From contig URIR01000003.1 in NCBI GenBank assembly GCA_900547955.1, forward strand, positions 11,711 to 75,710: DNA of 64,000 bases, read 5' to 3'. Shown piece by piece: positions 1 through 46,856 of this stretch. Origin of the DNA: an uncultured Eubacteriales bacterium (GTDB lineage: Bacteria > Bacillota > Clostridia > Christensenellales > QALW01). The position numbers and the translations under genes are program-made. The notes below the pieces were generated by a model that saw only the letters and a program-made list of their open reading frames with translations, had not been told where the DNA came from and did no database searches. Every line of letters starts with the position of its first letter. Positions within the stretch are counted from its first letter, which is position 1.

Positions 1-1426
1 TTATGACCGTGGATTCTTCCTTAATTATATCCATAACCTTCTGTTCGTTGGCAAGCACCTTCTGGCAGTAGGCTATAAAGCGGCGCTTTTCCTCCAATTC
101 CTCGGTCAGGCGGGATAATTCCAGACCAGTCAAGCGGTGCAGACGCATATCCAGTATACTTTTTGCCTGTTCATTTGAAAATTCCAGTTCGTCTACCAGC
201 CGCGTCCGGGCTATTTCGTAATTCTGGCTGGAACGGATTAAGGCTATAACCTGGTCTATTATGTCCAGCGCTTTTATAAGGCCTTCTAAAATGTGCGCGC
301 GGGCCAGGGCTTTATCCAAATCGTACTGGGTGCGGCGGCGGATAACCTCTTTCTGGTGTTCAAGGTAATAATAGAGCATCTGTTTAAGGTTGAGTATTCT
401 GGGCTCGCCGTCTACCAGCGCCAGCATAATAGCGCCGAAGGTTTCCTGGAGCTGGGTATGCTTATAGAGATAATTGAGCACTACGGTAGGATTGACGTCC
501 TTTTTCAGCTCCATAACTATGCGCATGCCGTCCTTATTGGATTCATCCCTCAGGGCGCTGAGTCCGTCAAAGCGCTTTTCCTTATACAGCTCGGCAATCT
601 TTTCAACTACCCGAGCCTTATTGACCTGATAGGGCAGCTCGCGTATTATTATGCGCGCGCGGTCGGCGGAGATTTGCTCTATTTCATGCTTGGCTCGAAC
701 CACTATGCGGCCTCGGCCGGTCAGATAGGTTTCCCGTATGCCGGCTAGTCCCAATATGCTTCCGCCGGTGGGAAAATCAGGGCCGGTTATATGCTCCATC
801 AGCTCTTCTACGGTTATATCCGGGTTATCTATAAGCGCTATAAGGCCTTTAATGGTTTCGCGCAGGTTATGCGGGGGAATATTTGTAGCCATGCCTACGG
901 CTATGCCGTCAGAGCCGTTCACTAAAAGATTGGGGAAGCGGGAGGGCAGCACCTTGGGCTGAAGCTCTGTTTCGTCGAAGTTGGGATAAAAATCCACAGT
1001 TTCCTTATCGATATCCGCCAGCATTTCGGCTGAAATCTTAGAAAGCTTAGCTTCGGTGTAGCGGGAGGCTGCCGGCGGGTCGCCGTCTACCGTGCCGAAA
1101 TTGCCCTGGCCCTGAACAAGCATATAGCGTATGGAAAAATCCTGGGCCAGACGAGCCAGCGCGTCGTATATGGAGCTGTCGCCGTGGGGATGATATTTAC
1201 CCATAACGTCGCCGACGATACGCGCGCTTTTGCGGGTGGGCTTATCGTTATACAGGCCCATTTCGTGCATGGAATAGAGTATTCGCCTGTGTACAGGCTT
1301 AAGACCGTCCCTTACGTCGGGCAGGGCGCGGCTTATATTGACTGCCATGGCGTAGGATATAAAGGATTTTTTTATCTCGTCCTCAATATCTACGTTAATT
1401 GTACGATTATGCAGATTATTCTCCAA
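1..1426 (-). CDS. gyrA: DNA gyrase subunit A, 5' part (gene runs off the left edge)
   Basis: The minus-strand frame is open from TTG at 1426 to the window edge, with GGAGGA about 8 nt upstream at 1434-1439. The translation [58 protein letters not shown]...[30 protein letters not shown]...[10 protein letters not shown] matches the conserved GyrA N-terminus. It is absent from the ORF track because it is truncated. Confidence 0.93.
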
Positions 1427-1498
1427 TTTAATATCCTCCCGGTGTTTTGCTTTAAGTTCGTATATCGCAGAAGCAAAAAAGCCTCTTTAACTATTTGA

Positions 1499-1650
1499 AG
1501 CCGCGGTCGCGCGCAGGGGCGCGGGCGGGTGTGATATGTATGGGCGGCGCGCGGGCGGTTTAGTCCGCGCGGGCCCAGTCCCCGCCCGCAGGGCGGGGAC
1601 TCTTTAGAGGGCGGGGCGCCCCCTTTTTTCTTTTAATGCTGGCGCCTATG
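1499..1650. repeat. GC-rich palindromic spacer between gyrB and gyrA
   Basis: Perfect hairpin gtccccgccc-gca-gggcggggac at 1578-1600. It is immediately followed by the motif ctctttagagggcggggcgccccc (1600-1623) and a T-run. gyrB and gyrA are usually closely spaced; here the spacer is 270 bp. Confidence 0.7.
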
Positions 1651-1696
1651 CCATAGTGAAATTTATTTTCCGGCACGCGGAGCGCTGCATATACGG

Positions 1697-3604
1697 TCAG
1701 ATATCAAGGTCGGCTACAAGCAGAGCGTTCTGCTCTATAAATTCGCGCCGCGGCTCTACCTGGTCTCCCATCAGTATGGTAAATATCTGGTCGGCCGCCA
1801 TAGCGTCGTCTAATGTCACCTTAAGCAGCGTTCTGGTTGCGGGATTCATGGTGGTTTCCCAAAGCTGCTCTGCGTTCATTTCGCCCAATCCCTTATAGCG
1901 CTGCACCTCGTAATTCTGTCTGTCTATGGATTCAAGATATTGGTTCAGCTCTGTGTCATTGTAAAAATAGCTTATTTGCTTTGTGCGGGTCAGCGTCACT
2001 TTGAAGAGCGGCGGCTGGGCAATGTATACATAACCCTCCTCTATAAGCTTGGGCATATGCCGGAAAAAGAAGGTTAAAAGCAGGGTGCGTATATGGCTTC
2101 CGTCCACATCGGCGTCCGTCATGCATATTATCTTATGATAGCGCAGCTTTTCAGCATTGAACTCTACGTCTATGCCGGCGCCGAATGCGGTTATCATGGC
2201 CCGTATTTCGGCATTTTGAAGCATCTTGTCCAGCCGGGTGCGCTCTACGTTTAATATTTTGCCGCGCAGGGGAAGTATGGCCTGGAATTTGCTGTCGCGG
2301 CCCTGCTTTGCGCTTCCGCCCGCGCTGTCCCCCTCTACTATGAATATTTCGCAGTTTTCTGGATGGTTGTCCGAGCAGTCTGCCAGCTTGCCGGGCAGCG
2401 CGTTGGATTCCAGCACGTTTTTGCGCCGGGTAAGCTCTCTCGCCTTGCGCGCGGCCTCCCGCGCTCTGTTGGCCGTCAGGCATTTGTCTATTATGGCCCG
2501 CGCTTCATCCGGATGCTCTTCCAAAAATGCGTCCAGCGTGCTGCCCACCACGTTATCTACCAGCGAACGGAATTCCGAATTGCCCAGCTTGGTTTTAGTC
2601 TGTCCTTCAAACTGCGGCTCCTCCAATTTAACGCTTATAACCGCTACCAGCCCTTCGCGCACATCCTCGCCCGACAGGGAAGCCTCGTTGCTTTTTAGCA
2701 TATGGTGCCGCTTAGCGTAGTCGTTGACCACTCTAGTCAAGGCCGTCTTAAAGCCCTGAAGATGAGTGCCTCCCTCGTGAGTAGCTATATTGTTTGCGTA
2801 GGTATATATTAATTCATTATAGTTGTCGTTGTACTGCATGGCCACTTCCACTATGGAGGCGCCCTTGTCTCCTTCCATATAAAGCGGCTCGGGAGTCAGT
2901 GCATTCTTGTTCTTATTTAAATATTTAACAAATTCTATTATGCCGCCCTCATAATGAAATTCATCCTGGCGCCCTTCGCCGCGTTCATCCTTAATGCGTA
3001 TGCGTATGCCTTTATTCAAAAAGGCCAGCTCGCGCAGCCGGCTGCGTATTGTCTCGTAATTGAATTCTACTGTTTCAAATATCTCGCTGTCCGGCCGGAA
3101 ACGCTCATAGGTGCCCGTGCTTTGACATTCACCTATCACGGTAAGCTCATTAATGGGGTCTCCCCGGCGGTAATCCTGGGAGTATATTTTGCCGTTCCGG
3201 CTTATCTCCACATGCAGCTCCTCGCTCAGGGCGTTGACTACGCTCATGCCTACGCCGTGCAGGCCGCCTGAAACCTTATAACCGCCGCCGCCGAATTTAC
3301 CGCCCGCGTGCAGGATGGTCATGGCTACCTCTACGGCGGGCTTATGGTATTTTTCGTGCATATCTACCGGTATGCCGCGGCCGTTGTCCCGCACGCTTAC
3401 CGTTCCGTCTGCGTGCAGAATAACCTCTATGGTATCGCAGTAGCCTGCCAGCGCTTCGTCTATGCTGTTGTCCACCAGCTCGGTGACGAGGTGATGCAGG
3501 CCTCTTTCGTCAGTAGAGCCTATATACATTCCCGGCCTGCGGCGTACTGCCTCCAGCCCTTCCAGCACCTGAATTTGAGAAGCATCGTAATTGTTTTGCT
3601 GCAT
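1697..3604 (-). CDS. gyrB: DNA gyrase subunit B
   Basis: 635-aa ORF with the N-terminal ATPase signature [25 protein letters not shown], the Toprim [14 protein letters not shown] motif and the C-terminal [15 protein letters not shown]. Confidence 0.98.
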
Positions 3605-3641
3605 TATAATTAATCCCTTCCTTAATATTGCTTCCTGAGCA

Positions 3642-3887
3642 TTACATTCCCGCCCGCTGAATAATGGTCTGCGCGGTTATGGGGGAAAGATAAAAGACGT
3701 ATCCCCGCTTATCGGCCGTCAGTATTCCGCATTTATAAGGAGGCGGGCCTATTTCTATCAGAAAGCCCTCCTCCCTGGAAATCTTTATAAAGTCTTGGGT
3801 ATCTTCAGTCAGCTCACCGTTCAGCTCAAGCACGGCTACGATTTTTTTTTGAAGCACGCTGACGTCTCCGCCCAGATGGACAAGCAT
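3642..3887 (-). CDS. DUF370 / RemB-like small protein
   Basis: 81 aa. The [11 protein letters not shown]...[13 protein letters not shown] pattern and the position directly upstream of gyrB are typical of the Firmicutes DUF370 gene. Confidence 0.8.
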
Positions 3888-4293
3888 ACGCTATTCCTTT
3901 CCCGGCTTAAACGCCGGATTATTAAAGCAAATTGAAAAAAGCAGTTGAAAGGCTGAACCGTTAAAAAACAGCAACCTTATTATATTTTTTATTATAGCAT
4001 ATTTTCATGCTTCTGTCTTGTGATTTTTGAAAAAACCCATGTTAAATATGGCGTAAAAGTCATTTTAAGCACTCAGACCCTTTTTAAGCATGAGCGCAAA
4101 TACTCCACCGTATGCCAAAGAGGAAAAAACGCCTGAGGGGCATATGCGCGGCATTGGGAGGGGCGGAGGAAGGAAGCTTTTGTATTGTAAAACAAAACGG
4201 ACGAAGAGACATATCGGTACGAAATAGGCGAACGATATATGCGTATAGTCAAAGAGCGGTAAAGAAAGCCGCGTTGCCGCGGACGCTCCCCAT

Positions 4294-4330
4294 ATTAATA
4301 AAAGGACGGCTGCGCCGTCCTTTTATTAAT
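4294..4330. terminator. Bidirectional intrinsic terminator downstream of pepF
   Basis: Perfect 16-bp stem attaataaaaggacgg / ccgtccttttattaat with loop ctgcg. The GC core is flanked by an A4 tract and a T4 tract. Confidence 0.6.
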
Positions 4331-4342
4331 ACAGGGGAGCCG

Positions 4343-4387
4343 AAGGGGGCGGCCGGGGCACAACGCGCCCCGACTCGCCCCCTTTTT
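4343..4387. repeat. GC-rich nested hairpin
   Basis: Outer stem aagggggcg (4343-4351) pairs with cgccccctt (4376-4384). It encloses cggggc...gccccg and is followed by T5. Confidence 0.5.
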
Positions 4388-4424
4388 GCTGTGCTTCGCC
4401 CAAACGCTCGAGGCTTAAAGCGGC

Positions 4425-6143
4425 TTAGGGAATCAGCTGGGCGTTGCGCCTGAGCAGCTCCATATACGAAGGGCCTACAATTTGTCTGAGCGCGCCTTCC
4501 TTAAAGGGCGAATCCAGCCCCATTTCCTCAAGCAGCTGAGGATAGGTGAACTGCGCGCCCTTTTGGACCAGCTTCATATATGTCTCCAGTCCCGCATTAT
4601 AATCCTCCCGCATTATATTGAGCAGCATGAACGCCGCAGACTGAGCCAGGCAGTAATCTATATAATAGAAGGGGTGCATGTAGATATGCAGCTGCCGCTG
4701 CCACCAGCCGCCCTTTGCGAAATAGCATATATCGCCGTAATCTATATCGGGACGGTAGGCGCTTTCCAGCTTCAGCCATTCCTCATGCCGCTCCTGTGGA
4801 GTCAGCTCAGGATTGTCGTAAACTATGTGCTGGAATCTGTCCACCATGCAGCCGTAGGGCAGGAAGATTATTGCGTCTGCAAGATGCTGATAGATGAATT
4901 TATCCTTTTTCTCCCCGAAAAACAGTCCCATATAGGGGTAAGTCATAAATTCCATGCCCATGGAATGAATTTCGGCTATATCGTAGGAGGGCTCTTCCTG
5001 CTCGATATATTTGACCTTTCGAAGGGATATATAGCTGTTAAGGGCATGCCCGCATTCGTGGGTGAGCACCTCTACGTCTCCTGCCGTGCCGTTGAAATTG
5101 GCAAAAACAAAGGGCGCCATAAAGTCGGGGATGCTGGTGCAGTAGCCTCCGCTGGCCTTGCCGTCCCTGCTCAGAACGTCAAACAGCCCGTTGGAGAGCA
5201 TAAATTCTATAAATTCAGCCGTGAGGGGAGAAAGCTCGGTATACATTTTCCGGCCCTTCTCGAATATTTCCTCAGGGGTTCCCTGAGGGCGGGGGTTGCC
5301 CTCCTTAAAGCTCAGGGAGCGGTCCCATATCATTGCGTCCTCTATGCCGTTGCGGTCGTGCTGAAGCTTTATAAGATGGGTAGCCAGGGGCACTATCTCT
5401 CTGCGTACCTGCTCGCAAAAGGCTTCGGTTTCCTTCCGGCCGTAGTCGGCCCGTTTAAGGCGGCAGTAGGCCATGTCGGTAAAGCTGTCAAAACCCAGCT
5501 TTTTGGCCATGCGGGTGCGGGTTTTCACCAGCTTGTCAAATATTTCGTCCAGTTTTGCGCCGTTTTCTTCCATGAATTTGCTTTCTGCTTCCCATGCGCG
5601 CCGGCGTATTTCCCTGTCCGGGTTTTGTTTAAAGGGTGTGAGCCGGCTTAAATTGACCGTTTGCCCGTCAAAGGGAATCTGAGCCGAGGCTATGAGCCTT
5701 TGATATTCGCTCTGAAGCCGGTTCTCTTCAGCCATATCTTCGGCAATTTCGGGAGAAAACGCCTTTTGGGCCAGCCGTGCGTTAAGAAAATAGGTTTCTC
5801 CCAGTTCTCTGCGAGCCAGCTCCTGAAATGGAGAATTCATTACTGCGCGGCTGAGGTCGGTGGAAAGCTGCTCCGCCGAGGGCATGTTCTGGTCGTAATA
5901 GTCGTTTTCCGCGCTGTAGAATTCGTCCTGGGTATTTATAGTGTGACGGATATAGCAGATATTGTACATGGTAGATAATCGGCGCTTAAAATGGTCCGCC
6001 TGCTTGAGCAGCTCCAGAAATTCCTCGGGGCTTTGCGCGGAACAAAGCTTTTCAGGGATGGAGGAGATTTCGGGCGGTATGGGCGTAAGAGGCACTCTTT
6101 GATATTGATAATCGTCAAATTTCATTGGGTTAATCCTTTCCAT
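4425..6143 (-). CDS. pepF: Oligoendopeptidase F family (M3B) zinc metallopeptidase
   Basis: 572-aa ORF with an HExxH zinc site (LTHECGHALNSY). Length and overall pattern fit M3B oligoendopeptidases. Confidence 0.88.
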   Translation of the reverse strand: MERINPMKFDDYQYQRVPLTPIPPEISSIPEKLCSAQSPEEFLELLKQADHFKRRLSTMYNICYIRHTINTQDEFYSAENDYYDQNMPSAEQLSTDLSRAVMNSPFQELARRELGETYFLNARLAQKAFSPEIAEDMAEENRLQSEYQRLIASAQIPFDGQTVNLSRLTPFKQNPDREIRRRAWEAESKFMEENGAKLDEIFDKLVKTRTRMAKKLGFDSFTDMAYCRLKRADYGRKETEAFCEQVRREIVPLATHLIKLQHDRNGIEDAMIWDRSLSFKEGNPRPQGTPEEIFEKGRKMYTELSPLTAEFIEFMLSNGLFDVLSRDGKASGGYCTSIPDFMAPFVFANFNGTAGDVEVLTHECGHALNSYISLRKVKYIEQEEPSYDIAEIHSMGMEFMTYPYMGLFFGEKKDKFIYQHLADAIIFLPYGCMVDRFQHIVYDNPELTPQERHEEWLKLESAYRPDIDYGDICYFAKGGWWQRQLHIYMHPFYYIDYCLAQSAAFMLLNIMREDYNAGLETYMKLVQKGAQFTYPQLLEEMGLDSPFKEGALRQIVGPSYMELLRRNAQLIP

Positions 6144-6162
6144 GCGCCAAATGGCGCGCCAT

Positions 6163-6247
6163 AGATAATATAATCAAAAGGGCAATGCGTTTTTAAAAGG
6201 ATATTGTTTTGTTTGTCCTGGGACGCATTGTATTTTGATTTTATTGA
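6163..6247. mobile_element. Miniature (85 bp) derivative of MITE family 1, TA-flanked
   Basis: Termini gataatataatcaaaagggcaatgcg and cgcattgtattttgattttattgat are inverted repeats related to the ends of the 276-284 bp copies. A TA dinucleotide lies on both sides (6161-6162 and 6248-6249). Confidence 0.55.
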
Positions 6248-6334
6248 TTAAATGATATAGTATTATATATTATATGTGTATGCAATAATTATATCTGGAT
6301 AAAAATTAACCAATTATTAACATTTGAGCGGGCG

Positions 6335-6426
6335 GGGGCCGGCGTTTGGCAGGCGCCGCAGGCGCCTGCCTGGGCCGGGCGCTGCCGCGCCCGGCCTGCG
6401 GCCGTACGGCCGCAAACGCCGGCCCC
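6335..6426. repeat. GC-rich cloverleaf palindrome (four-way junction), member 1
   Basis: Outer stem ggggccggcgttt (6335-6347) pairs with aaacgccggcccc (6414-6426). It encloses three perfect hairpins: ggcaggcgcc-gca-ggcgcctgcc (6348-6370), ggccgggcgc-tgcc-gcgcccggcc (6373-6396) and tgcggccg-ta-cggccgca (6397-6414). Confidence 0.85.
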
Positions 6427-6502
6427 GCAGAATAAAGCCGGGAAGAACGCTCAAAGATATAGCCCTGCTAGAAAGCGCAAAGCGGGCGGGATTATATAAT
6501 AA

Positions 6503-6594
6503 GGCGCCCCTGCCGCCGCGCAGCGTGCGGCGGCAGGGGCGCCCGGGCGCGCGTAAAACGCGCGCCCTCCTTTAAAGGGCGGGGCGTCCCCGCG
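6503..6594. repeat. Two perfect GC hairpins plus the CCTTTAAAGGGCGGGGCG motif
   Basis: A 17-bp stem ggcgcccctgccgccgc / gcggcggcaggggcgcc at 6503-6543, a 9-bp stem gggcgcgcg-taaaa-cgcgcgccc at 6545-6567, and the motif at 6565-6591. Confidence 0.8.
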
Positions 6595-6710
6595 ATTAAC
6601 GCATAAGCCTTCTAGAAAAGAAATTTTCAACCGTTTCAGCTTAAAAAACCTTTGTATTCTCCTTAAAACCCGTTTGTAATAAAAAATTTAAGAAAAATTA
6701 AAAAAACCGC

Positions 6711-6739
6711 TTGCCAAGCGCGGATTTTTATTGTAATAT
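6711..6739 (+). promoter_or_regulatory. Candidate sigma-A promoter of the S10 operon
   Basis: TTGCCA (6711-6716), a 17-nt spacer, then TAATAT (6734-6739). This lies about 185 nt upstream of rpsJ. Confidence 0.5.
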
Positions 6740-6923
6740 AAAAAAGCCGCAAAACGCGCCGAATGCGGCAAAACGGTATGAAGCGGGAGGTTGCCGGAAT
6801 AATCCGGGTAATTTCCGCGGACAATTGTCCGATAATCGGACGACAGGCCAAATGGCCGCTTTAAAAATTTAAAAGCGGCACACACGGAAACGTGTATTTG
6901 AGCTTACAAGGAGGTTTATTTTA

Positions 6924-7232
6924 ATGGCAAGTCAGAAGATCAGAATCAATCTTAAGTCGTATGACCACAATCTGGTGGACCAGACAGCGGCCAGGATAGT
7001 GGAGACCGCCAACAGGACAGGCGCAACTGTTTCAGGTCCCATACCGCTGCCTACAGAAAAAGAAGTAGTTACTATCCTGCGCTCCCCTCATAAATATAAG
7101 GACAGCCGGGAGCAGTTTGAAATGCGTACCCATAAGCGTCTCATCGACATCTATAACGCCGGCAGCAAGACGGTCGAAGCGCTTACAAAGCTTGATCCTC
7201 CCGCAGGCGTGGATATCAAGATAAAGCTCTAA
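6924..7232 (+). CDS. rpsJ: 30S ribosomal protein S10
   Basis: The 102-aa translation ([17 protein letters not shown]...) matches uS10. An AAGGAGG RBS is present and it is the first gene of the conserved S10 order. Confidence 0.98.
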
Positions 7233-7250
7233 GGGCGGAGGTGACGGAAT

Positions 7251-7883
7251 ATGAAAAAAGCTATATTGGGAAAAAAGCTGGGCATGACCCAGATATTTAA
7301 AGAGGACGGCACGGTAGTTCCCGTTACTGTCATCCAGGCGGGGCCGTGTACGGTAATTCAAAAGAAAACTGTTGAAAACGACGGCTATGACGCCTTGAAG
7401 GTAGGCTTCGGCGAGATACGCGAAAAGTTAGTCAATAAGCCGGACGCCGGACAGTTCAAAAAAGCAGGCGTGCCCGCTATGCGCTATGTTAGGGAGCTTC
7501 GCCTGGACGACTGCTCGGGCTATGAAATAGGACAGGCCATTACCTGCGACGTTTTTGCTCAGGGCGACCGCGTGGACGTTACCGCCCGCAGCAAGGGCCA
7601 CGGCTTCTCGGGCGTTATTCAGCGCTGGAACCAGCATACCGGCCCTATGGCTCACGGCTCGGGCTATCACCGCGGCGTAGGCTCCATGGGCGCCAATTCT
7701 TCTCCCAGCAGGGTGTTTAAGAATAAGCATATGCCTGGACATTGGGGAAACGAGCGGGTGACGATACTCAATCTTGAAGTGGCCCGCGTGGACGCTGAAA
7801 GAGGCGTTATACTGCTTAAGGGCGCCGTGCCCGGAGCAGACGGCGCGTTAGTAACCATTCGCCAGTCGGTCAAGAGCAAATAA
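7251..7883 (+). CDS. rplC: 50S ribosomal protein L3
   Basis: 210 aa; [16 protein letters not shown]... matches uL3; conserved order. Confidence 0.98.
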
Positions 7884-7900
7884 GCAAGGAGGTTATTTAA

Positions 7901-8524
7901 ATGCCTAAAGTAGCTGTCTACAATCTCGAAGGCTCGCAGACGGGCGAGCTTACGTTGAGCGATGAGATATTCGCTTCAGATATAAATAAGGCGGTCATAC
8001 ATTCAGTTGTGCGCGCGCAGCTGGCCAATAAGCGCCAGGGCACAAAGAGCACCCTGACCCGCACCGAAGTCCGCGGCGGCGGCAAGAAGCCTTACCGCCA
8101 GAAGGGAACGGGCCGCGCCCGCCAGGGCTCTACGCGCGCTCCCCAGTTCACAAAGGGCGGCGTAGTTTTTGCGCCCAAGCCCCGTTCCTTCAGAATAAAT
8201 GTTCCCAAGAAGGTTAAGCGCCTCGCGCTTAAGGGCGTGCTTACCGATAAGGTGGTAAACGATTCCTTTATAGTGGTTGAGGACCTGAATCTGGCCGCTC
8301 CCAAGACTAAGGAGATGGTTAAGGTGCTGGCTAACCTCAAAATGGAGGGCAAGACCCTTATCGTGCTGAGCGCTCCCGACGAGACGGTTCAGCGCGCCGC
8401 CGGAAATCTTCCCACGGCCGCCGTTACATTGGTAAACACCCTCAACGTGGTGGATATGCTCAAGGCGGATAAGCTGCTCCTTACAAAGGAAGCGGTTGAG
8501 CGGATTGAGGAGGTGTACGCGTAA
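7901..8524 (+). CDS. rplD: 50S ribosomal protein L4
   Basis: 207 aa; uL4 pattern ([19 protein letters not shown]); conserved order. Confidence 0.98.
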
Positions 8525-8820
8525 TGAAATTTTACGAGGATATTATAAGAAAGCCGGTGCTTTCTGAAAAAACCTACGATATGATAGGGGATAAGCGCTA
8601 TGTTTTCATAGTGGACCGGCGCGCCAATAAGGTGGAGATTAAAAAAGCGGTGGAGAGCATTTTCGACGTGCAGGTAGAAAAGGTGAACACCGTTACCACC
8701 ACCGGCAAGATTAAGCGCATGGGCCGCTCGGAGGGCAGAACCCCCACCACCAAAAAGGCCTATGTAATTTTGAAAAAAGATTCCAAGCCCATTGCGTTCT
8801 TTGAAGGCATGGCTGATTAA
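8524..8820 (+). CDS. rplW: 50S ribosomal protein L23
   Basis: 98 aa; TAATG overlap with rplD; uL23 pattern. Confidence 0.97.
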   Translation: MKFYEDIIRKPVLSEKTYDMIGDKRYVFIVDRRANKVEIKKAVESIFDVQVEKVNTVTTTGKIKRMGRSEGRTPTTKKAYVILKKDSKPIAFFEGMAD

Positions 8821-8841
8821 AAGCAGAGGAGGAATAGCAAA

Positions 8842-9672
8842 ATGGCGATTAAGAAGTATAAGCCTACAAGCCCGGCCAGACGTTTTATGTCCGTCTCCGC
8901 TTTTGAGGAGATAACGGCCAAAAGCCCTGAAAGGTCTCTGCTGGGTAATATCAAGAAAAACGGCGGCCGCAATAACGCCGGCCGTATGACCGTGCGCCAT
9001 CAGGGCGGCGGCAACACCCGCAAGTACAGGATTATTGATTTCAAGCGCGCTAAGGACGGCATTCCCGCCCGCGTGGCCAGTATTGAATATGATCCCAACC
9101 GTTCGGCCAACATCGCGCTGCTGGTCTATAGGGACGGCGAGAAAAGATATATTCTTGCGCCCTACGGCCTGAATGTCAACGATACGCTCTATTCGGGTGC
9201 GGACGCTGATATCAAGGTGGGCAACGCGCTGCCCATATCGGCCATCCCTGTGGGTACCTTAATTCACAATATCGAGCTTACGCCTGGTAAAGGCGGCCAG
9301 CTTGTCCGCTCGGCAGGCAACGCCGCGCAGCTTATGGCTAAGGAGGGCGCTTACGCCCAGGTGCGCCTGCCCAGCGGCGAAGTGCGCATGATATCCATGA
9401 ACTGCCGCGCCACTATCGGCCAGGTAGGCAATCTGGATTATGAAAACGTTTCTATCGGCAAGGCGGGCCGCAAGCGCCATATGGGCGTCCGTCCTACCGT
9501 CCGCGGCGTGGTTATGAACCCGTGCGACCATCCTCACGGCGGCGGCGAAGGCAAGTCCCCCATAGGCCGGCCGGGTCCGGTTACCCCGTGGGGCAAGCCC
9601 ACCTTGGGATACAAGACCCGCGCCAAGAAGAACAAGTCGGATAAATACATTATCAAGCGCCGTAACGGCTAA
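8842..9672 (+). CDS. rplB: 50S ribosomal protein L2
   Basis: 276 aa; uL2 pattern ([16 protein letters not shown]). Confidence 0.98.
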
Positions 9673-9687
9673 GGAAGGAGTCTAAGC

Positions 9688-9966
9688 ATGAGCAGATCGG
9701 TTAAAAAAGGACCTTATGTAAACGAAAAGCTGCTGGCGAAGATTGTGGCCATGAATGAATCGGGCGAGAAAAAGGTTTTAAAGACCTGGAGCAGAGCTTC
9801 GACTATCTTCCCCGACATGGTGAGCCACACCATTGCCGTTCACGACGGCAGGAAGCATGTACCAGTATATATTACAGAGGATATGGTAGGACATAAGCTG
9901 GGCGAATTCGCTCCGACCCGCACCTTCAGGGGGCATGCCGGTTCGGAGAAATCCTCAGGCAAGTAA
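9688..9966 (+). CDS. rpsS: 30S ribosomal protein S19
   Basis: 92 aa; [11 protein letters not shown]... matches uS19. Confidence 0.98.
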
Positions 9967-9981
9967 GGAGGAGCATTGAAA

Positions 9982-10368
9982 ATGGGAAAAAGATCGGCGC
10001 TCAAAAGAGCGCGCAATGAAGAAAAGCGCGAGCAGCGCGCGCATGCAACTGCAAAATATGTGCGCATCTCCTCCAGAAAGGTACGCATTGTAATCAATCT
10101 TATCAGAGGCAAAAAGGTGGACGAGGCTCTGGCCATTCTCCGCTTCACCCCCAAAAGCGCCTCCCCCGTTGTGGAAAAGCTGCTGAATTCGGCTATAGCC
10201 AACGCGGAGCACAATCTGGGCTTATCCAGGGACACATTATATGTGGCTGAAATCTTTGCCAACCAGGGCCCCAGCCTTAAGAGGTTCATGCCCAGGGCAA
10301 AGGGCAGCGCTTCTCCCATACTCAAGAGAACCAGCCATATTACCGTGATTCTGGACGAGATTAAGTAA
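9982..10368 (+). CDS. rplV: 50S ribosomal protein L22
   Basis: uL22 pattern. The track starts at TTG 9976, but ATG 9982 has better spacing from the AAGGAGGAG RBS at 9964-9972. Confidence 0.95.
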
Positions 10369-10381
10369 AGGAGGCATACAG

Positions 10382-11050
10382 ATGGGTCAGAAAGTTAATC
10401 CTCACGGCGCCAGGGTTGGCGTTATAAAGGGCTGGGACGCCCGTTGGTTTGCTGATAAAAAGGAATTTGCAAACTATATAGCGGAGGACGACAGGCTCCG
10501 CAAGTATCTTAAGAAAAAGCTCTACAGCGTAGGCATATCCAAGATAGAGATTGAGCGCAAGGCCAATTCCACCACCGTTTATCTCTATACCGCAAAGCCG
10601 GGCGCTTTAATAGGCAAGGGCGGCGCTGGAATAGAGGCGCTGCGCAAGGATATCTCCGCCTTTATCGGAAGGCCGGTAAACGTAAACGTTATGGAGATAA
10701 AGAAGCCGGACATAGACGCGCAGCTTGTAGCCGAGAATATAGCGGCTCAGCTTGAAAAGCGCATAAGCTTCCGCCGCGCCATGAAGCAGGCCCTGCAGCG
10801 CGCTGTCAAGGGCGGGGCCAAGGGTATAAAAACTCAGGTTTCGGGCCGTTTGGGCGGAGCTGAAATTGCCCGCAGCGAGGGCTATCATGAGGGCAGCATT
10901 CCCCTTCAGACCCTGAGGGCGGATATAGAATACGGCTTTGCCGAGGCGCACACCACTTACGGGCGCATAGGCGTTAAGGTCTGGGTATATAAGGGCGAAG
11001 TGCTCCCCCAGGTCAAGAAGGACGACAAAGCAGCGGAAGGGGGCAAATAA
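10382..11050 (+). CDS. rpsC: 30S ribosomal protein S3
   Basis: 222 aa; MGQKVNPHG... with KH domain pattern. Confidence 0.98.
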
Positions 11051-11053
11051 GTC

Positions 11054-11494
11054 ATGTTGATGCCTAAAAGAGTTAAGAGACGGCGCGTATTCCGCGGGCG
11101 CATGAAGGGCAAGGCCCAGCGCGGCAATTTCATTGCCTACGGCGAATACGGCATAATGGCGCTGGAGCCCGCCTGGGTTACCAGCAACCAGATAGAAGCG
11201 GCCCGTATAGCTATGACCCGTTACGTCAAGCGTCAGGGCCAGGTATGGACCAAGATATTTCCCGATAAGCCGGTAACGGCTAAGCCGGCCGAGACCCGAA
11301 TGGGAAGCGGTAAGGGCTCGCCCGAATACTGGGTGGCCGTGGTTAAGCCGGGCAGGGTGCTTTTTGAGATGGGAGGCATTCCCGAGGAGTCGGCGCGCGA
11401 GGCGCTGCGCCTGGCCGCTCATAAGCTGCCCCTGAAGGTTAAATTCGTAAAGAAATCAGATTTTGAAACGGAACAGGGTGGTGACGCAGAATGA
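11054..11494 (+). CDS. rplP: 50S ribosomal protein L16
   Basis: 146 aa; [19 protein letters not shown]... matches uL16. Confidence 0.98.
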
Positions 11495-11703
11495 AATCAG
11501 AAAAAAAGGTAAGAAAGTTTTCCGACCTGACTGACGCCGAGCTTAACGATAAGCTCAAGGACCTTAAGAGCGAGCTGTTCAACCTGCGCTTCCAGAACGC
11601 CACCGGTCAGCTCCAGAATCCCATGCAGATAGGCCTTTGCAAGAAGGATATCGCCAGAGTAAAGACCTTGCTGCGCGAGCGCGAGCTGGCGCAGGCCGAG
11701 TAA
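11491..11703 (+). CDS. rpmC: 50S ribosomal protein L29
   Basis: 70 aa; ATGA overlap with rplP; uL29 pattern ([11 protein letters not shown]). Confidence 0.96.
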
Positions 11704-11722
11704 GAAGGGAGGAGCTTAAAAA

Positions 11723-11983
11723 ATGGAAAACACGAGAAATTTCCGCAAGCAGAGAACGGGCGTAGTAGTGAGCGACAAAATGGATAAGACCATAGTCGTG
11801 GCTATAAAGACCAAGGTAAAGCATCCGCTTTACGGCAAGACTGTTAACCGCACCACCCGCTTAAAGGCGCATGACGAGAAGAACGAATGCGGCATAGGGG
11901 ATACCGTGCGCATAATGGAGACCAGGCCGTTGAGCAAGGAAAAAAGATGGAGACTGGTAGAAATAATCGAGAAGGCTAAATAA
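11723..11983 (+). CDS. rpsQ: 30S ribosomal protein S17
   Basis: 86 aa; uS17 pattern. Confidence 0.97.
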
Positions 11984-12009
11984 GCCGCTGCCGGAAGGAG
12001 GCAATAATT

Positions 12010-12378
12010 ATGATTCAACCTCAGACAAGATTGCAGGTTGCCGATAACACAGGCGCTAAGGAAATCATGTGCATCCGTGTGCTGGGCGGCTCGTTCAGGC
12101 GCCACGGCGGCATAGGAGACACCATAGTCGCATCTGTAAAGAGCGCCGCTCCGGGCGGCGTAGTCAAAAAGGGAGACGTGGTCAAGGCGGTTATAGTACG
12201 CACGACCAAGGCCAAGCGCCGCCCCGACGGGACGTACATCCGCTTTGACGATAACGCGGCCGTTATAATCAACGACCAGAAAATGCCCAGGGGCACCCGT
12301 ATATTCGGGCCCATAGCCCGCGAGCTGCGCGAAAAGGACTATATGAAGATAATTTCGCTGGCTCCCGAAGTCTTATAA
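12010..12378 (+). CDS. rplN: 50S ribosomal protein L14
   Basis: 122 aa; [18 protein letters not shown]... matches uL14. Confidence 0.98.
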
Positions 12379-12391
12379 GGAGGCGCCGACG

Positions 12392-12754
12392 ATGAAGATT
12401 AAAAAGGGCGATAAAGTCAGGATAATCACCGGCAAGGACAAATACCGCGCCGATAATAAGGAAACCTACGAGCACGAGGTGCTTGCCTGCTATCCCAAGG
12501 AGAACCGCATACTGGTTAAGGATGTGAACGTGGTTACCCGTCACACCAAGCCCCGCAAGGCGGGCCAGGCGGGCGGCAGGATTAAAAAGGAAGCTCCCAT
12601 AGACGCTTCAAACGCGATGGTTATATGCCCCAAGTGCGGACAGCCTACCCGAGTGGGCTACCGTGTTGAAAAGCAGGGGGATAAGGCCGTTAAGGTGCGC
12701 GTCTGCAAGAAAAAGGTGGACGGCGTTCCCTGCGGCGCGTCTCTGGATAAGTAA
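12392..12754 (+). CDS. rplX: 50S ribosomal protein L24 (Cys-containing C-terminal form)
   Basis: 120 aa; KOW N-terminus; the C-terminal part has CPKCG...[12 protein letters not shown]. Confidence 0.95.
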
Positions 12755-12776
12755 GGAAAGGGAGGTAAAAATTCAA

Positions 12777-13316
12777 ATGGCAAGATTGAAGGATAAATAT
12801 AAGTCCGAGATTGCCGGGGCCATGCAGCAGAAGTTCGGCTATAAGAACATAATGCAGATACCCAAGCTGGATAAAATAGTTATCAATATGGGTCTGGGCA
12901 ACGTTAAGGACGATTCTAAGAAATTTGAAGCCGCCGTTTCCGAGCTTGCGCTTATAGCGGGCCAGAGGCCGTTAATAACCAAGTCCAAGAAGTCGGTTGC
13001 AAATTTCAAGGTGCGCCAGGGCATGAATATAGGCGCAAAGGTTACGCTGCGCGGCGACCGCATGTATGAATTTGCAGATAAGCTGGTTAATATATGTATT
13101 CCCCGCATACGCGATTTCCACGGCGTTTCCCCCAAGGGCTTTGACGGCCGCGGCAATTACGCGCTGGGCATCAAGGAGCAGCTTATATTCCCCGAAATAG
13201 AATATGATAAGATTGACCAGGTAAGAGGCATGGATATAATCTTTGTCACCACGGCAGAGACGGACGAGGAAGCCAAGGAGCTGCTTCGCCTGATGGGCAT
13301 GCCCTTCAGCGCTTAA
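12777..13316 (+). CDS. rplE: 50S ribosomal protein L5
   Basis: The track ORF (12663) is over-extended. ATG at 12777 gives [12 protein letters not shown]..., the canonical uL5 N-terminus (179 aa). Confidence 0.96.
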
Positions 13317-13336
13317 GAGAGGGAGGATTTCAGAAA

Positions 13337-13522
13337 ATGGCTAAAAAAAGCATGATAAACAAGCAGCAGAGGACTCCCAAATACTCCACCAGGGCTTATA
13401 CCCGCTGCCGGATATGCGGACGGCCTCACGCCGTGCTGCGCAAATACGGAATCTGCCGTATCTGCTTCAGGGAGCTGGCCTACCGCGGCCAGATACCCGG
13501 CGTGCGCAAGGCAAGCTGGTAA
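13337..13522 (+). CDS. rpsN: 30S ribosomal protein S14, short zinc-binding type
   Basis: 61 aa with CRICGRP...CRICFRE. Confidence 0.97.
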
Positions 13523-13555
13523 GAGCGTTAATGATTTGAGAGGAGGAAATCTAAA

Positions 13556-13954
13556 ATGGTTGTTACAGATCCTATCGCGGATATGCTCACCAGAATCAGG
13601 AACGCTCTGGTAGCAAAGCACGAGACGGTGGACGTCCCCGCTTCCAATATGAAAAAGGCCGTTGCGCAGATTCTGCTCAGCGAGGGCTTTATAAAGGGCG
13701 TTGAGGTTATAGAGGACGGCGTTCAGGGCACCCTGAAGCTGACCCTTAAATACGGCGCCGGCAAGGAACGGGTTATATCGGGCCTTAAGCGCATAAGCAC
13801 CCCTGGCCTGAGAATATATGCAAGATGCGAAGAGCTCCCCAAGGTGCTGGGCGGAATGGGCATAGCCTTAATTTCCACCAGCAAGGGAGTAATGACGGAC
13901 AGTCAAGCCCGTAAGCTGGGCGTAGGCGGCGAAGTGCTCGCTTATGTCTGGTAA
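13556..13954 (+). CDS. rpsH: 30S ribosomal protein S8
   Basis: 132 aa; [13 protein letters not shown] matches uS8. Confidence 0.98.
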
Positions 13955-13981
13955 CGGCGGAAAATGCGGAGGTAATTTATT

Positions 13982-14524
13982 ATGTCAAGAATAGGTAAGC
14001 TCCCTGTAATTGTTCCCGCCGGGGTTACCGTAACGGTAGACTCAGAAAATAACGTCACCGTTAAGGGGCCCAAGGGCACTCTTACCGAGAGCATCAGCAA
14101 GGAAATAGAAATTAAGCAGGAGGACGGCCAGATTTTAGTGAGCCGCAAGGGCGATTCAAAGCTTCAGCGCTCCCTGCACGGCCTCTCCAGAACCCTCGTC
14201 AGCAATATGGTGACGGGCGTGACCAACGGCTATGAGAAGGCGCTTGAGATTCAGGGCGTAGGCTACCGCGCCGCTAAGCAGGGCAAGAAACTGGTTCTGA
14301 ACGTAGGGTATTCCCATCCTGTGGAGATTGAGGAGACCGCGGATATTTCAATAGACGTGCCCGCGCAGAACAAGATAGTTATTAAGGGCATCAATAAGCA
14401 GAAGGTCGGACAGTTTGCGGCCGATGTGCGCAATGTGCGCAAGCCCGAGGTATATCATGGCAAGGGTATCCGCTATGAGGGCGAATATGTCCCGCTCAAA
14501 GAGGGAAAGACGGGTAAGAAGTAA
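13982..14524 (+). CDS. rplF: 50S ribosomal protein L6
   Basis: 180 aa; MSRIGKLPV... matches uL6. Confidence 0.98.
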
Positions 14525-14542
14525 GAAAGGAGAGGCAATAGG

Positions 14543-14911
14543 ATGATTAAGAAGAAGGACAAGAATCTTGACCGCCTTGCGCGTCATGCGCGCGTGCGCA
14601 AAAAGATTTCGGGTACGGCCGAGAGGCCCAGGCTGAACGTTTACCGCAGCCTCAATCATATCTATACTCAGGTAATAGACGACGCCGCCGGAAATACTCT
14701 TGCCGCCGCCTCCACCGTTGAGAAGGAGATAGCTTCTCAGGTACAGGATATGACTAAGACTGAGGCCGCGAAGCTTATAGGAAAGATTATCGCCCAGCGC
14801 GCCCAGGAAAAGGGCATCAAGCAGGTTGTTTTTGACAGAGGGGGCTACCTCTATACCGGCCGTGTCGCCGCGGTGGCTGAAAGCGCGCGCGAAGCGGGCC
14901 TGGAGTTCTAA
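14543..14911 (+). CDS. rplR: 50S ribosomal protein L18
   Basis: 122 aa; uL18 pattern. Confidence 0.97.
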
Positions 14912-14929
14912 AAGGAGGATTTTATAAAA

Positions 14930-15433: not shown

Positions 15434-15532
15434 GAAGCAAAAGAATTTTTTCGGGGATGATGTCCGGCCGCATTCAGGGACGGATATAAATTAGGCGCAG
15501 GGGCGCGTTAGCGCGTGTTTATGGGCGTTCAG

Positions 15533-16135: not shown

Positions 16136-16195
16136 ATTTCAGAATCCTCCTAAAAATCTAGGCCCGTAAGGGCGGACAGAAAGGTATGAGATGAA

Positions 16196-19517: not shown

Positions 19518-19534
19518 GGCTTGCGGAGGTTGCT

Positions 19535-19828: not shown

Positions 19829-19832
19829 GCCG

Positions 19833-21615: not shown

Positions 21616-21631
21616 GGGGAGGTTTGAATAA

Positions 21632-46851: not shown

Positions 46852-46856
46852 AATCA

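Follow-up and report, generated by a model that had tools for sequence, protein, structure and literature searches.

The window analysed here is a stretch of 64,000 nucleotides from an uncultured member of the Clostridia. It hosts three elements with a cloverleaf architecture, E1, E2 and E3. E1, the subject of this work, lies between divergent genes, upstream of the promoter and leader of the S10 operon. The elements and their parts are as follows.

6335-6426, minus strand: E1, a complete type-1 cloverleaf unit, from sequence, fold and covariance models
6335-6348 pairing with 6413-6426: closing stem of E1, GGGGCCGGCGTTT(G)/(C)AAACGCCGGCCCC, 13-14 bp
6348-6370: hairpin A of E1, GGCAGGCGCC-GCA-GGCGCCTGCC, perfect 10-bp stem
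6373-6396: hairpin B of E1, GGCCGGGCGC-TGCC-GCGCCCGGCC, perfect 10-bp stem
6397-6414: hairpin C of E1, TGCGGCCG-TA-CGGCCGCA, that is TGCGGCCGTACGGCCGCA, an 18-nt perfect palindrome without spacer
6323-6455: outer interrupted helix around E1, TTTGAGCG (6323-6330) pairing with CGCTCAAA (6448-6455), from sequence
6503-6586: GC-rich hairpins near E1 that are not type-1; 17-bp stem at 6503-6543, 10-bp stem at 6545-6567, palindrome at 6561-6586
24308-24509, minus strand: E3, a 'type-2' cloverleaf with three arms on a perfect outer stem of 45 bp that ends in CAGGGGGGCGGCGCG
28394-28504, plus strand: E2, a type-1 unit (28417-28504; C-B-A on the plus strand) with the surviving left arm of a long closing stem, from about 28394

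Cloverleaf elements of the window

An earlier sequence-only reading had proposed an outer stem and hairpins A, B and C at 6335-6426, and on re-reading these match the sequence exactly. On the minus strand the hairpins follow one another as C-B-A, and on the plus strand as A-B-C. The predicted fold of E1 is a cloverleaf of -92.2 kcal/mol (z = -6.1), and none of 200 dinucleotide shuffles was as stable. The same reading saw the three hairpin types in the order C-B-A at 28417-28504, which both the sequence and the fold of E2 confirm (-86.7 kcal/mol, z = -7.9). The inverse orientation of the pair is likewise recovered by two covariance models, R1 and R2. These prefer the minus strand for E1 (68.3 and 62.7 bits, against 29.4 and 31.4 on the plus strand) and the plus strand for E2 (53.2 and 46.8 bits, against 29.4 and 25.6 on the minus strand). 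E1 was also said not to be a tRNA. Indeed, ARAGORN reports no tRNA or tmRNA in the window and the Rfam tRNA model has no match on E1; a tRNA has arms of 7, 4, 5 and 5 bp with D, T and anticodon loops, whereas type-1 arms are 6-12 bp long and their loops 2-5 nt.

The sequence of E1 is unchanged in three strain contigs (L012-L014). In the orthologue L060 every stem is identical and the differences are confined to two loops. There the outer helix reads TTTGCGC/GCGCAAA, a mirrored A:T to C:G change that is weak evidence because the helix is just 8 bp long. L060 and L011/L015 retain the neighbouring hairpins at 6503-6586, where a 1-nt indel and a T>C/A>G change both occur in mirrored form. They lie under a match to the sbcD RNA (RF01757) over 6500-6637 on the minus strand, which at 34 bits (E = 2e-5) falls short of the gathering score of 40. 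No T-run accompanies E1, and a terminator role would be senseless in its divergent promoter region; it may be no more than an insertion that is tolerated there. Transcription of E1 could in principle start from a promoter-like site at 6244-6273 on the plus strand.

The closing stem of E2 is 35-37 bp long in other strains, but in the window the right arm ends after GGGTT(G) at 28504, where a strain-specific segment of 2.4 kb truncates it. In L063 the orthologous element has its core inverted, within a perfect stem of 38 bp. A partial allele in L010 retains the right arm alone, which is predicted by neither tip insertion nor simple slippage. The 493-aa ORF adjoining E2 was considered as a transposase and rejected. 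It has no Pfam match and a weak NPXTG anchor motif; on these two features it is probably a surface protein, one bracketed by MITE copies.

E3 was thought to share the architecture of E1. The plan of an outer stem around three hairpins stands, but E3 scores only 23-24 bits with the type-1 models and is a member of a related but distinct, larger 'type 2' family, with homologues at L030:245-460, L044:1575-1780, L049:1980-2215 and L175:10225-10440. One of its arms, GCCCGGCCGAGCC-AAA-GGCTCGGCCGGGC, contains a B-variant stem, and its central arm of 26 bp carries no nested type-1 unit. Eight of nine contigs found through RplQ terminate within E3. Segments that vary between strains have their start precisely at E3's right-hand edge (24509) and within the right arm of E2; the segment adjoining E3 is ancestral DNA that has been lost in some strains.

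Census of the family and comparison with known systems

The type-1 unit consists of 85-92 nt, in which a closing stem of about 12 bp surrounds hairpins C, B and A with junctions of 0-4 nt. This is a four-way junction with nearly all bases paired. The consensus is GGGGGCGGCGTTT/AAACGCCGCCCC for the closing stem, GCGGCC for C, GGCCGGGC for B and GGCAGGCGC for A. Among 28 aligned copies the C stem GCGGCC/GGCCGC is invariant (28/28) and the A stem GGCAGGCGC is conserved in most; the B core GGCCGGGC/GCCCGGCC is conserved as well, with a base and a tip that vary in mirrored fashion. E1 and E2 both have the closing stem and C, B and A in order, at the R2 scores given above.

The prediction that further family members exist proved correct. 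We found 33 distinct copies of about 47-86 bits, in the species of the window and three relatives: the MAGs 'Selenomonadales bacterium CIM:MAG 469' and Candidatus Neochristensenella gallicola, and one metagenome contig. The R1 search gave 32 distinct copies (48-86 bits), 13 of which were missed by a 24-nt B-A pattern; the 13 extra copies came from about 125 kb of flanking DNA. R2 was built from copies in other genomes only, with no window sequences, and it recovers E1, E2 and the L060 and L063 copies. The similarity is not one of GC-rich low complexity either: in 155 kb of pattern-containing control DNA of 62-74% GC the type-1 models reach 22 bits at most, and 760 kb of pattern-selected viral DNA yielded no match at E <= 0.001.

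In a genome scan with the 24-nt pattern, multiple matches occurred only in two MAGs of about 50% GC; the others were single, in 62-74% GC DNA (21 high-GC stretches from other genomes). A phage origin was rejected, as the 80 loci that matched the pattern in three viral scans (0, 6 and 74) had no covariance-model match. Relatives found through DnaA (96%, 75% and 68% identity) have no type-1 copy across 15-21 kb around dnaA, and one of them has a type-2 element. A look-up of the Metallophos neighbour protein returned window-like strains only, with no new allele. The density is about one copy per 10 kb, a figure biased upward because loci were chosen for containing the pattern, and the window has just two type-1 copies in 64 kb. 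Type-1 is a family of a narrow clade of uncultured gut Clostridia. We found no description of this cloverleaf family in the full-text literature searched, and it is apparently previously undescribed.

All 33 copies are intergenic and occur in both orientations, the upstream gene's stop codon usually lying about 10-150 nt away. Sixteen lie between co-directional genes, six between convergent and three between divergent ones. Of the 16 between co-directional genes, 12 lie closer to the stop codon on the upstream side, and their orientations (5 vs 11) show no significant bias. The elements are probably transcribed as 3' UTRs. As for the features of an intrinsic terminator, about 10 of the 22 closing stems inspected are preceded by an A-run and followed by a T-run (in 2 the runs are reversed) and most copies follow stop codons; E1 shows neither.

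How does this family compare with known systems? Rfam 15 at the gathering threshold, applied to the window and 15 loci (about 30 copies), finds only the S10 leader, a cobalamin riboswitch, SRP RNA and tRNA, all elsewhere, and a permissive search over E1 returns chance-level matches only. The sbcD RNA likewise consists of long GC-rich hairpins of gut metagenomes, but its weak match lies off E1. The REP, BIME and REPIN elements of Proteobacteria have much in common with type-1. They too are high-copy GC-rich extragenic palindromes that occur in either orientation and as mosaic compounds, at gene 3' ends and in convergent regions, with no target duplication, with compensatory stem change and as hot spots of rearrangement and insertion. 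The high copy number and exclusively extragenic location of the 33 copies fit this class. Membership was nevertheless rejected: GTAG/CTAC occurs in 0 of 33 copies and CGTC/GACG, anywhere, in 5, and a three-hairpin junction of 85-92 nt is not the single imperfect palindrome of 20-40 nt, or inverted pair of these, that defines a REP or REPIN. In addition, type-1 stems are essentially perfect and free of G·T, closing stems lengthen into locus-specific perfect stems that reach 45 bp, and larger cloverleaves bear nested units at their tips. The hosts are Clostridia, and no RAYT turned up in the clade DNA searched.

Bacterial MITEs (Correia/NEMIS, ERIC, RUP and the pneumococcal BOX A-B-C) resemble type-1 in being small, non-coding, dispersed and foldable, with terminal inverted repeats, and BOX elements are also modular. 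Type-1 differs in that the whole element pairs and not the termini alone, and no parent IS with the same ends was seen. Its flanks form inverted and not direct repeats and a target-site duplication is absent, so it is not a MITE. The inverted terminal repeats of parvoviruses such as AAV and the folded telomeres of Streptomyces linear replicons are GC-rich, multi-branched perfect palindromes (A-B-B'-C-C'-A') with GNA-type or A-rich triloops and flip/flop orientations, in which one arm is copied from the other. They are the ends of linear replicons and are served by Rep or terminal proteins. Type-1 elements, unlike these, are internal, chromosomal and multi-copy, with three inner hairpins; the likeness may indicate a way in which symmetry is kept up, but it is not one of membership.

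Organelles provide a further parallel, in the double-hairpin elements of Allomyces and the hairpin repeats of sponge mitochondria (PMC2800124) and the palindromic repeats of Volvox (PMC2670323). These are also short GC-rich multi-hairpin intergenic modules that insert into each other and have no known enzyme, but they are organellar, unrelated in sequence, usually imperfect and have no four-way junction. Template-switch mutation can make or perfect a hairpin in a single step, as in quasipalindrome correction and the de novo origin of miRNA hairpins (PMC10710096). Such a process accounts, with no mismatched intermediates, for substitutions and indels in mirrored form, for inverted loops and for palindromes that lack a spacer. 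It is a mutational process, though, and leaves the conserved A, B and C sequences and the many copies unexplained.

Pairing, mirrored change and spread

In the 28 aligned copies, 99.0% of pair cells are paired and 22 of 35 pairs change on both sides, with 85 two-sided against 2 one-sided change cells; the alignment (A3) was fitted to the model, so these pair counts tilt towards structure. None of 500 shuffles matches the observed values, and slid controls are 30-49% paired. Covariation among the copies is strong, with differences nearly always mirrored on both arms, as first noticed for E1 and E2. G·U pairs are rare, with 5 of 965 aligned cells (0.5%). In predicted MFE structures they make up 1.4% of 2306 pairs, against 11.9% in four reference RNAs on the same contigs (tRNA, SRP RNA, cobalamin riboswitch and S10 leader), which is about 8-fold rarer. 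Some stems do contain imperfections, namely a G·T pair, a bulge or an unmirrored 7-nt duplication.

The orthologous stems after dnaA are a convenient illustration. The stems of L001 (37 bp) and L063 (38 bp) are both perfect, yet they differ at eight or more positions and by a 2-nt indel; the substitutions and indels are all mirrored and there are no mismatches. Ordinary terminator hairpins of the same two species, by comparison, include unmirrored changes. Turnover is rapid in the loops, at the tips and bases of the hairpin stems and in the outward extension of the closing stem, and the changes there are nearly always mirrored and strictly Watson-Crick. Structures can also flip. The centre loop of E3 reads TTT or AAA across strains about 1% apart, and relative to dnaA the core of E2 is C-B-A in the window and A-B-C in L063. 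Loops are mostly triloops or self-complementary zero-spacer centres. They are unconserved, and complementary forms occur in similar numbers (AAA/TTT 20/16, GCA/TGC 15/11, GAA/TTC 11/15). The sequence-only reading had left two options: either structure is under selection, or some mechanism uses one arm as the template for the other. The rarity of G·U, the mirrored substitutions and indels and the flips of loops and cores narrow this choice towards arm copying at the level of DNA. An apparent 'arm swapping' of outer stems between the two MAGs was set aside, since the common 7-8-mers could have arisen by chance.

Each locus has its own perfect closing stem, of 7-45 bp, and the flanks of type-1 units pair as inverted repeats. 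In type-2 elements the tip of the central arm may or may not carry a type-1 unit, and one carries hairpin A alone; long perfect hairpins lacking a unit are abundant. There are signs of both spread and retention. Near-identical paralogues occupy unrelated loci with different outer stems (e.g. L039:6457 and L048:1568), and a 'GATGTC' subtype sits in intergenic regions that differ between the two MAGs. The two MAGs also have copies in orthologous intergenic regions, with flanking proteins 72-98% identical, and one such orthologous pair has a rare A/B variant in common. Retention of this kind suggests low mobility, or function over selfish spread. No target-site duplication was found: one copy has a direct repeat of 3 nt flanking its perfect stem, and in the other 32 the longest is 0-1 nt. 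No filled site could be set against a cleanly empty one among the loci compared. A tblastn search of about 300 kb of clade DNA, a weak test with an IS200-like query, gave no IS200 or RAYT gene. An all-vs-all comparison of ORFs near the copies revealed no recurrent neighbour family other than ABC-type paralogues and orthologous synteny.

Origin and maintenance of the elements

Our preferred reading, held with moderate confidence, is that E1 is one copy of a dispersed, high-copy, REP/BIME-like family of GC-rich DNA palindromes whose arms are perfected by templated arm-to-arm copying. The constraint would act on DNA, as single-strand hairpins or cruciforms, and not on RNA. Complementarity could be kept by template switching in replication, by fold-back synthesis or by arm-to-arm gene conversion, and loops and whole cores would flip by that process too. 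Units would be gained at the tips of existing long hairpins, which would give rise to the locus-specific perfect outer stems and the nested cloverleaves. As with REP/BIME elements, most copies probably persist because so stable a structure at the 3' end of a gene is tolerated, or serves termination, protection of the 3' end or insulation.

A possible alternative, which we do not favour, is a non-autonomous element that travels as folded single-stranded DNA, with a hairpin-specific enzyme supplied from elsewhere in the genome, be it a RAYT, an HUH enzyme of IS200/IS605 type or another nuclease or recombinase. The enzyme would recognise the stems of A, B and C and insert the unit into single-stranded hairpin loops, and so the idea overlaps with our preferred reading plus a dedicated enzyme. 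It is consistent with stem sequences conserved over 33 copies in at least four species amid randomised loops and outer stems, with the dispersed paralogues and the 'GATGTC' subtype, with units located at hairpin tips and with the lack of target duplication, as in single-strand 'peel and paste' transposition. IS1397 and ISKpn1, which insert into REP loops, are a precedent for loop targeting. Yet the clade DNA searched offers no candidate gene, a GTAG head is lacking and CGTC is present in only 5 of 33 copies, many copies are old and orthologous, and a filled and cleanly empty pair of sites is missing. It is unlikely that the elements are structured ncRNAs or cis-acting RNA elements, such as terminators or 3'-end stabilisers, under selection on the RNA fold with DNA symmetry as a by-product. 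The position of most copies just 3' of stop codons, their enrichment in convergent regions, the A-run, stem, T-run form of many closing stems, the strong covariation, the weak match of neighbouring hairpins to an Rfam sRNA motif and the promoter-like site before E1 would all suit an RNA. But the scarcity of G·U, the missing preference for an orientation relative to transcription, the unconserved loops in both complementary forms and the inversion of a whole core at an orthologous site do not, and perfect stems of 35-45 bp are far longer than an RNA function would require. Three copies, E1 among them, moreover lie between divergent genes.

Integron-type attC or other site-specific recombination sites that mark cassette ends seem very improbable. 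Strain-variable segments do begin at the right edge of E3 and after GGGTT in E2, and the E3 outer stem GCCTAAG...CTTAGGC resembles the inverse-core and core boxes of attC. An attC is an imperfect palindrome with extrahelical bases and R''/R' boxes (RYYYAAC...GTTRRRY), found in one-way arrays near intI. Type-1 stems are perfect, with the closing consensus GGCGTTTG/CAAACGCC and none of the extrahelical bases that define a folded attC. The copies are scattered after core genes in both orientations, no integrase was seen, and the DNA adjoining E3 is an ancestral segment lost in some strains and not a cassette gained. We give next to no credence to there being no family at all, with E1 and E2 as unrelated GC-rich, terminator-like clusters alike by composition. 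The stems are almost all G/C, so short common words like GGCCGGGC are not rare, and the exact pattern has its single matches in 21 high-GC stretches of other genomes. The independent model and the controls reject this idea, however: R2 scores of 62.7 and 46.8 bits compare with 22 or less in the 155 kb of controls and nothing in the viral DNA, and 33 copies have the hairpins, junction lengths and closing stem in the same order.

A bolder and rather doubtful proposal is that the cloverleaf units, together with the larger cloverleaves bearing them, form a new kind of self-propagating DNA. Hairpin modules would be copied into single-stranded hairpin tips and extended by fold-back (snap-back) synthesis on their own flank, through an unrecognised dedicated enzyme or a clade-specific peculiarity of replication or repair. 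If true, this would yield fractal, perfectly self-complementary structures without target duplication. It would also account for arms that stay identical, loops and cores that flip and elements that act as break points of strain-level deletion and replacement.

There are practical consequences for researchers working on these genomes. The elements break short-read assemblies, as with the RplQ contigs that end in E3, they coincide with strain-level structural variation near dnaA and oriC, and they are prone to being miscalled as ORFs or going unnoticed as terminators. A covariance model for annotating type-1 elements now exists.

If our reading is right, common uncultured gut Clostridia carry a dispersed repeat family, with 33 copies in the DNA sampled, of an architecture unreported for bacterial repeats: a four-way junction with near-perfect Watson-Crick pairing and nested units. 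The mirrored substitutions and indels, the inversions of loops and cores and the zero-spacer centres would then be an unusually clean record of palindrome maintenance, pointing to a process in which one arm serves as template for the other. The creation, perfecting and tolerance of long bacterial palindromes would thus become testable in this clade.

Two cloverleaves on opposite strands and their setting

The sequence-only reading had described a cloverleaf at 6335-6426 (E1), and the sequence there matches that description exactly. A closing stem of 13-14 bp, GGGGCCGGCGTTT(G)/(C)AAACGCCGGCCCC, surrounds three perfect hairpins. The minimum-energy fold of E1 is the cloverleaf (-92.2 kcal/mol, z = -6.1) and none of 200 dinucleotide shuffles is as stable. 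Its partner (E2) carries the hairpins in the order C-B-A, as claimed, and folds at -86.7 kcal/mol (z = -7.9). The element had been said not to be a tRNA, and ARAGORN finds no tRNA in the whole window. At gathering thresholds the sole Rfam match in the window is the S10 leader, with none on the cloverleaf.

Hairpins of E1, all perfect
A: GGCAGGCGCC-GCA-GGCGCCTGCC
B: GGCCGGGCGC-TGCC-GCGCCCGGCC
C: TGCGGCCG-TA-CGGCCGCA

Features of the window around the elements
4425-6143, minus strand: M3 peptidase gene
6335-6426, minus strand: E1, type-1 cloverleaf
6711-6739: S10 promoter-like site, downstream of E1
6770-6843: S10 leader
6924-24269: ribosomal-protein cluster, rpsJ to rplQ
24308-24509: E3, a larger type-2 cloverleaf, beginning 39 nt past rplQ
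near 26723: DnaA box
26997-28322: dnaA (Pfam), after the ribosomal-protein cluster
28417-28504, plus strand: E2, type-1 cloverleaf, beginning 95 nt past dnaA

The window is a Clostridia chromosome. Identical proteins are encoded on contigs of many metagenome assemblies and in MAG GCA_964325985.1, and sample names suggest that these assemblies come from human gut. E1 lies between the divergent peptidase gene and the S10 promoter and leader, with promoter-like sites on both flanks. In the window dnaA immediately follows the rplQ end of the cluster (23757-28322) and has no dnaN after it. Relatives whose DnaA is 96%, 75% and 68% identical have quite other genes around dnaA: an RHS toxin gene; rnpA-yidC-jag-mnmE-mnmG; or topA/trmFO and thrS. 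Inside the ribosomal-protein cluster, the spacer between rpmJ and rpsM (20237-21245) is non-coding and G-rich, of about 1 kb (GC 0.56, GC skew about +0.2), and every strain contig has it. A permissive Rfam search of this spacer gave no match, and the spacer may represent either a decayed gene or a large structured RNA.

A narrowly distributed family with mirrored stems

One genome per species was scanned with the B-A junction pattern GCCCGGCC-N0-4-GCAGGCGC-N3-5-GCGCCTGC, which gave 37 loci; the window species was not among the genomes returned. Ten matches lie in the chicken-gut MAG Candidatus Neochristensenella gallicola and eight in 'MAG: Selenomonadales bacterium CIM:MAG 469', both of about 50% GC, while the remaining matches are single and in DNA of 62-74% GC. 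Locus L060, from CIM:MAG 469, is syntenic with window positions 44-6172 at 82-87% identity, and its match is the E1 orthologue.

Further family members do exist, and the copies are predicted to take one and the same cloverleaf fold. A covariance model (R1) from an alignment of 18 copies (A1), run on the window and 21 loci, recovered 32 distinct copies with scores of 48-86 bits, 13 of them without the exact search pattern, and one more copy in metagenome contig L063 brings the total to 33. A second model, R2, was built from 27 matches of the two MAGs (26 distinct copies and one reverse-strand echo), leaving out window and L060 sequences. It scores E1 at 62.7 bits on the minus strand and E2 at 46.8 bits on the plus strand, which bears out their proposed inverse orientation, and finds nothing above 32 bits in the rest of the 64-kb window. 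The best covariance-model score in 155 kb of pattern-containing high-GC loci was 22 bits, and 760 kb of pattern-selected viral loci gave no match with E <= 0.001. Mere GC low complexity is thus answered by the detection of both elements with an independent model and by controls at no more than 22 bits.

The family is a conserved four-way-junction unit in many copies. Its consensus, read C-B-A, starts with GGGGGCGGCGTTT, followed by GCGGCC-loop-GGCCGC (C), GGCCGGGC-loop-GCCCGGCC (B), GGCAGGCGC-loop-GCGCCTGCC (A) and the closing arm AAACGCCGCCCC. Its distribution is that of a narrow clade, with copies seen in the window species, CIM:MAG 469, Ca. Neochristensenella gallicola and the L063 species. 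The relatives with 96%, 75% or 68% DnaA identity have no type-1 copy in the 15-21 kb around dnaA, although the 96% relative does hold a type-2 element.

In an alignment of 28 copies (A3), standard pairs fill 99.0% of 965 pair cells. The expectation that differences are mirrored on both arms was confirmed, with 22 of 35 pairs changed on both sides, in 85 cells against 2 one-sided. Not one of the observed measures is attained in 500 column shuffles, and sliding the partner by 1-3 columns lowers pairing to 30-49%. G·U occupies only 5 cells of A3. In minimum-energy folds of 33 extended elements it makes up 33 of 2306 pairs (1.4%), compared with 24 of 201 (11.9%) in four RNAs of these contigs (the tRNA, SRP RNA, cobalamin riboswitch and S10 leader). 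Because G·U is so rare, the pairing rule is Watson-Crick only. This is what a DNA hairpin or arm-copying predicts and is not usual under RNA selection. The evolution of the stems is mirrored and strictly Watson-Crick.

Copies prefer the 3' ends of genes. For 25 copies a gene was called on each side: the neighbours are co-directional for 16, convergent for 6 and divergent for 3, E1 included. Of the 16 in co-directional pairs, 12 sit closer to the stop codon of the upstream gene, some at a distance of 8-10 nt. Orientation relative to transcription (5 vs 11) is not significant. At L029:4284-4527 a compound cloverleaf and, some 200 nt downstream of it, a cobalamin riboswitch share one intergenic region, which places the cloverleaf between the upstream gene and the riboswitch-controlled operon.

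Several known kinds of element invite comparison. No target-site duplication flanks the copies, none of the 33 has a GTAG head and CGTC occurs in only 5 of 33; two tested REP features (tetranucleotide head and simple-palindrome form) and one MITE feature (target-site duplication) therefore failed. The perfect stems and the scatter of copies in both orientations rule out attC sites, a viral origin is contradicted by the absence of model matches at E <= 0.001 in the viral loci, and an assembly artefact is contradicted by the same structures inside MEGAHIT, SPAdes, IDBA and Logan contigs and across species.

Orthologues, inversions and nesting

The stems of E1 are identical in the window and L060, in surroundings that are 82-87% identical, and two loops differ (TA vs GAA and GGCA vs GGAC). 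The hairpin at 6503-6543 differs between these sequences by an extra C in one arm and an extra G in the other, and in the next hairpin T>C is mirrored by A>G. In contrast, two ordinary terminator hairpins, likewise compared between the window and L060, do have unmirrored changes. In the more distant lineage of L011 and L015, E1 is absent and the 6503 hairpin has mirrored multi-base indels and one mismatch. Orthologous copies in the two MAGs keep their A, B and C stems; the outer extensions are unrelated, yet near-perfect. The hairpins adjoining E1 (6500-6637, minus strand) show a weak, sub-threshold resemblance to the Rfam family RF01757 (sbcD RNA; gathering score 40), at 34 bits and E = 2e-5; these hairpins are kept in two other species with mirrored changes.

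Strain contigs L001-L004, L008 and L009 carry E2 after dnaA with a perfect closing stem of 35-37 bp. L063, a different species (dnaA 85% identical at the nucleotide level), has an element at this site with a 38-bp perfect closing stem, ...CTAAATCCCGGCGGCGTTT, homologous to that of L001; at least 8 positions and a 2-nt indel differ, all mirrored. Its three hairpins are in reverse order relative to dnaA, and the covariance-model strand assignment agrees. L062, another species, has no element after dnaA. At L010:2060-2110, orthologous to 28390-28510, the left arm and three hairpins of E2 are gone and the 35-nt right arm is intact, the junction joining ...GCCGCTC to GCGCCGCCGGG... without a useful direct repeat. 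This looks like secondary loss, since L063 shows that the element predates the species; its end points do not follow from slippage or from tip insertion. The orphaned left arm of E2 in the window has three differences from L001, one of which, a T>C change, lets it pair again with the base that opens the new right flank.

Strain-variable segments start precisely where E3 ends on the right (24509) and within the right arm of E2 (28504), and 8 of 9 contigs found with RplQ terminate within E3. Homologues in L062 and L063 make the 2 kb after E3 ancestral, so L001-type strains have lost it through a deletion abutting E3. The variable segments, 24509-26509 (an HTH repressor-like gene and two small ORFs) and 28505-30944 (standing in place of about 60-80 nt), flank dnaA and oriC.

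Loops and cores are inverted, and units are nested. At the centre of E3 the loop reads TTT in the window, L017 and L019, and AAA in L001-L004, L008-L010, L016 and L018, strains about 1% divergent. Across the family triloops prevail (122 of 325 perfect hairpins), and six of them make up 88 of the 122, each matched by its complement in similar numbers (AAA/TTT 20/16, GCA/TGC 15/11, GAA/TTC 11/15); zero-spacer palindromes number 36 of 325. In a survey of 118,019 genomes, 4-nt spacers were commonest in bacterial perfect inverted repeats (PMC13155455). The G/C homopolymers of the E3 arms measure 6/6, 7/7, 6/7 or 7/6 among strains, a variation that may reflect intermediates or sequencing error.

Perfect pairing continues past the conserved closing stem (about 12 bp), to 7-45 bp in total with locus-specific sequence, often crossing an A-run at left and a T-run at right. 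Type-2 elements (140-215 nt) have three arms and an outer stem ending in CAGGGGGGCGGCGCG.

Type-2 members
E3 (window), L030:245-460, L044:1575-1780, L175:10225-10440
Six copies with a complete type-1 unit at the central-arm tip
L049:1980-2215, type-1 closing stem with hairpin A only
L057, which also has a type-1 closing stem around a bare loop

The same contigs are rich in long perfect hairpins without the unit (stems 20-42 bp), and hairpins with stems of at least 7 bp number 325 in 180 kb against 86 after shuffling. The simplest reading would be that hairpin tips are where units are acquired and lost.

Other palindromes accompany these elements. The two MAGs have many very long unit-free perfect palindromes with stems of 25-42 bp and spacers of 0-2 nt (e.g. 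L044:2847-2995, L030:319-560, L047:7644-7693 and L029:6986-7050). In the window, an intergenic cluster of long perfect hairpins at 61982-62290 (stems 17, 14, 18 and 8 bp), enclosed by a 23-nt imperfect outer inverted repeat and without a type-1 model match, may represent a further compound palindrome. A 493-aa ORF, for which Pfam gives no family and which shows just a weak NPXTG-anchor motif, lies between two inverted repeats of about 90 nt (28839-28928 and 30679-30771; 87% identical). A related 268-nt MITE-like unit at 34187-34454 has 22-nt perfect ends, AATACAATCAAAGTACAATGCG, and similar ends lie upstream of dnaA in L063. MITE-like inverted-repeat pairs at 46855-46961, 52581-52691 and 52437-52714 have the common end CGCAAATTTTATGC, one nested inside another.

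A proposed mechanism

We infer that the constraint acts on DNA. The arms would stay complementary through templated copying of one from the other, with replication template switching, fold-back synthesis or arm-to-arm conversion as candidate routes; template switching and fold-back synthesis have been described for hairpin genesis (PMC10710096). Units would enter at the tips of hairpins, and copies would persist since stable 3'-end structures are tolerated or useful, a persistence that we propose to be like that of REP/BIME. Because stem sequences are conserved at old orthologous sites, a trans-acting factor may read them. None turned up, and a local search for an IS200-like gene, a weak test on roughly 300 kb of DNA from this clade, was negative.

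The cloverleaf is real, and its interpretation as related inverse copies with paired-arm differences is supported. The type-1 family is a new and architecturally unusual form of structured extragenic palindromic repeat, a class already known, and it bears clear signatures of arm-to-arm copying.
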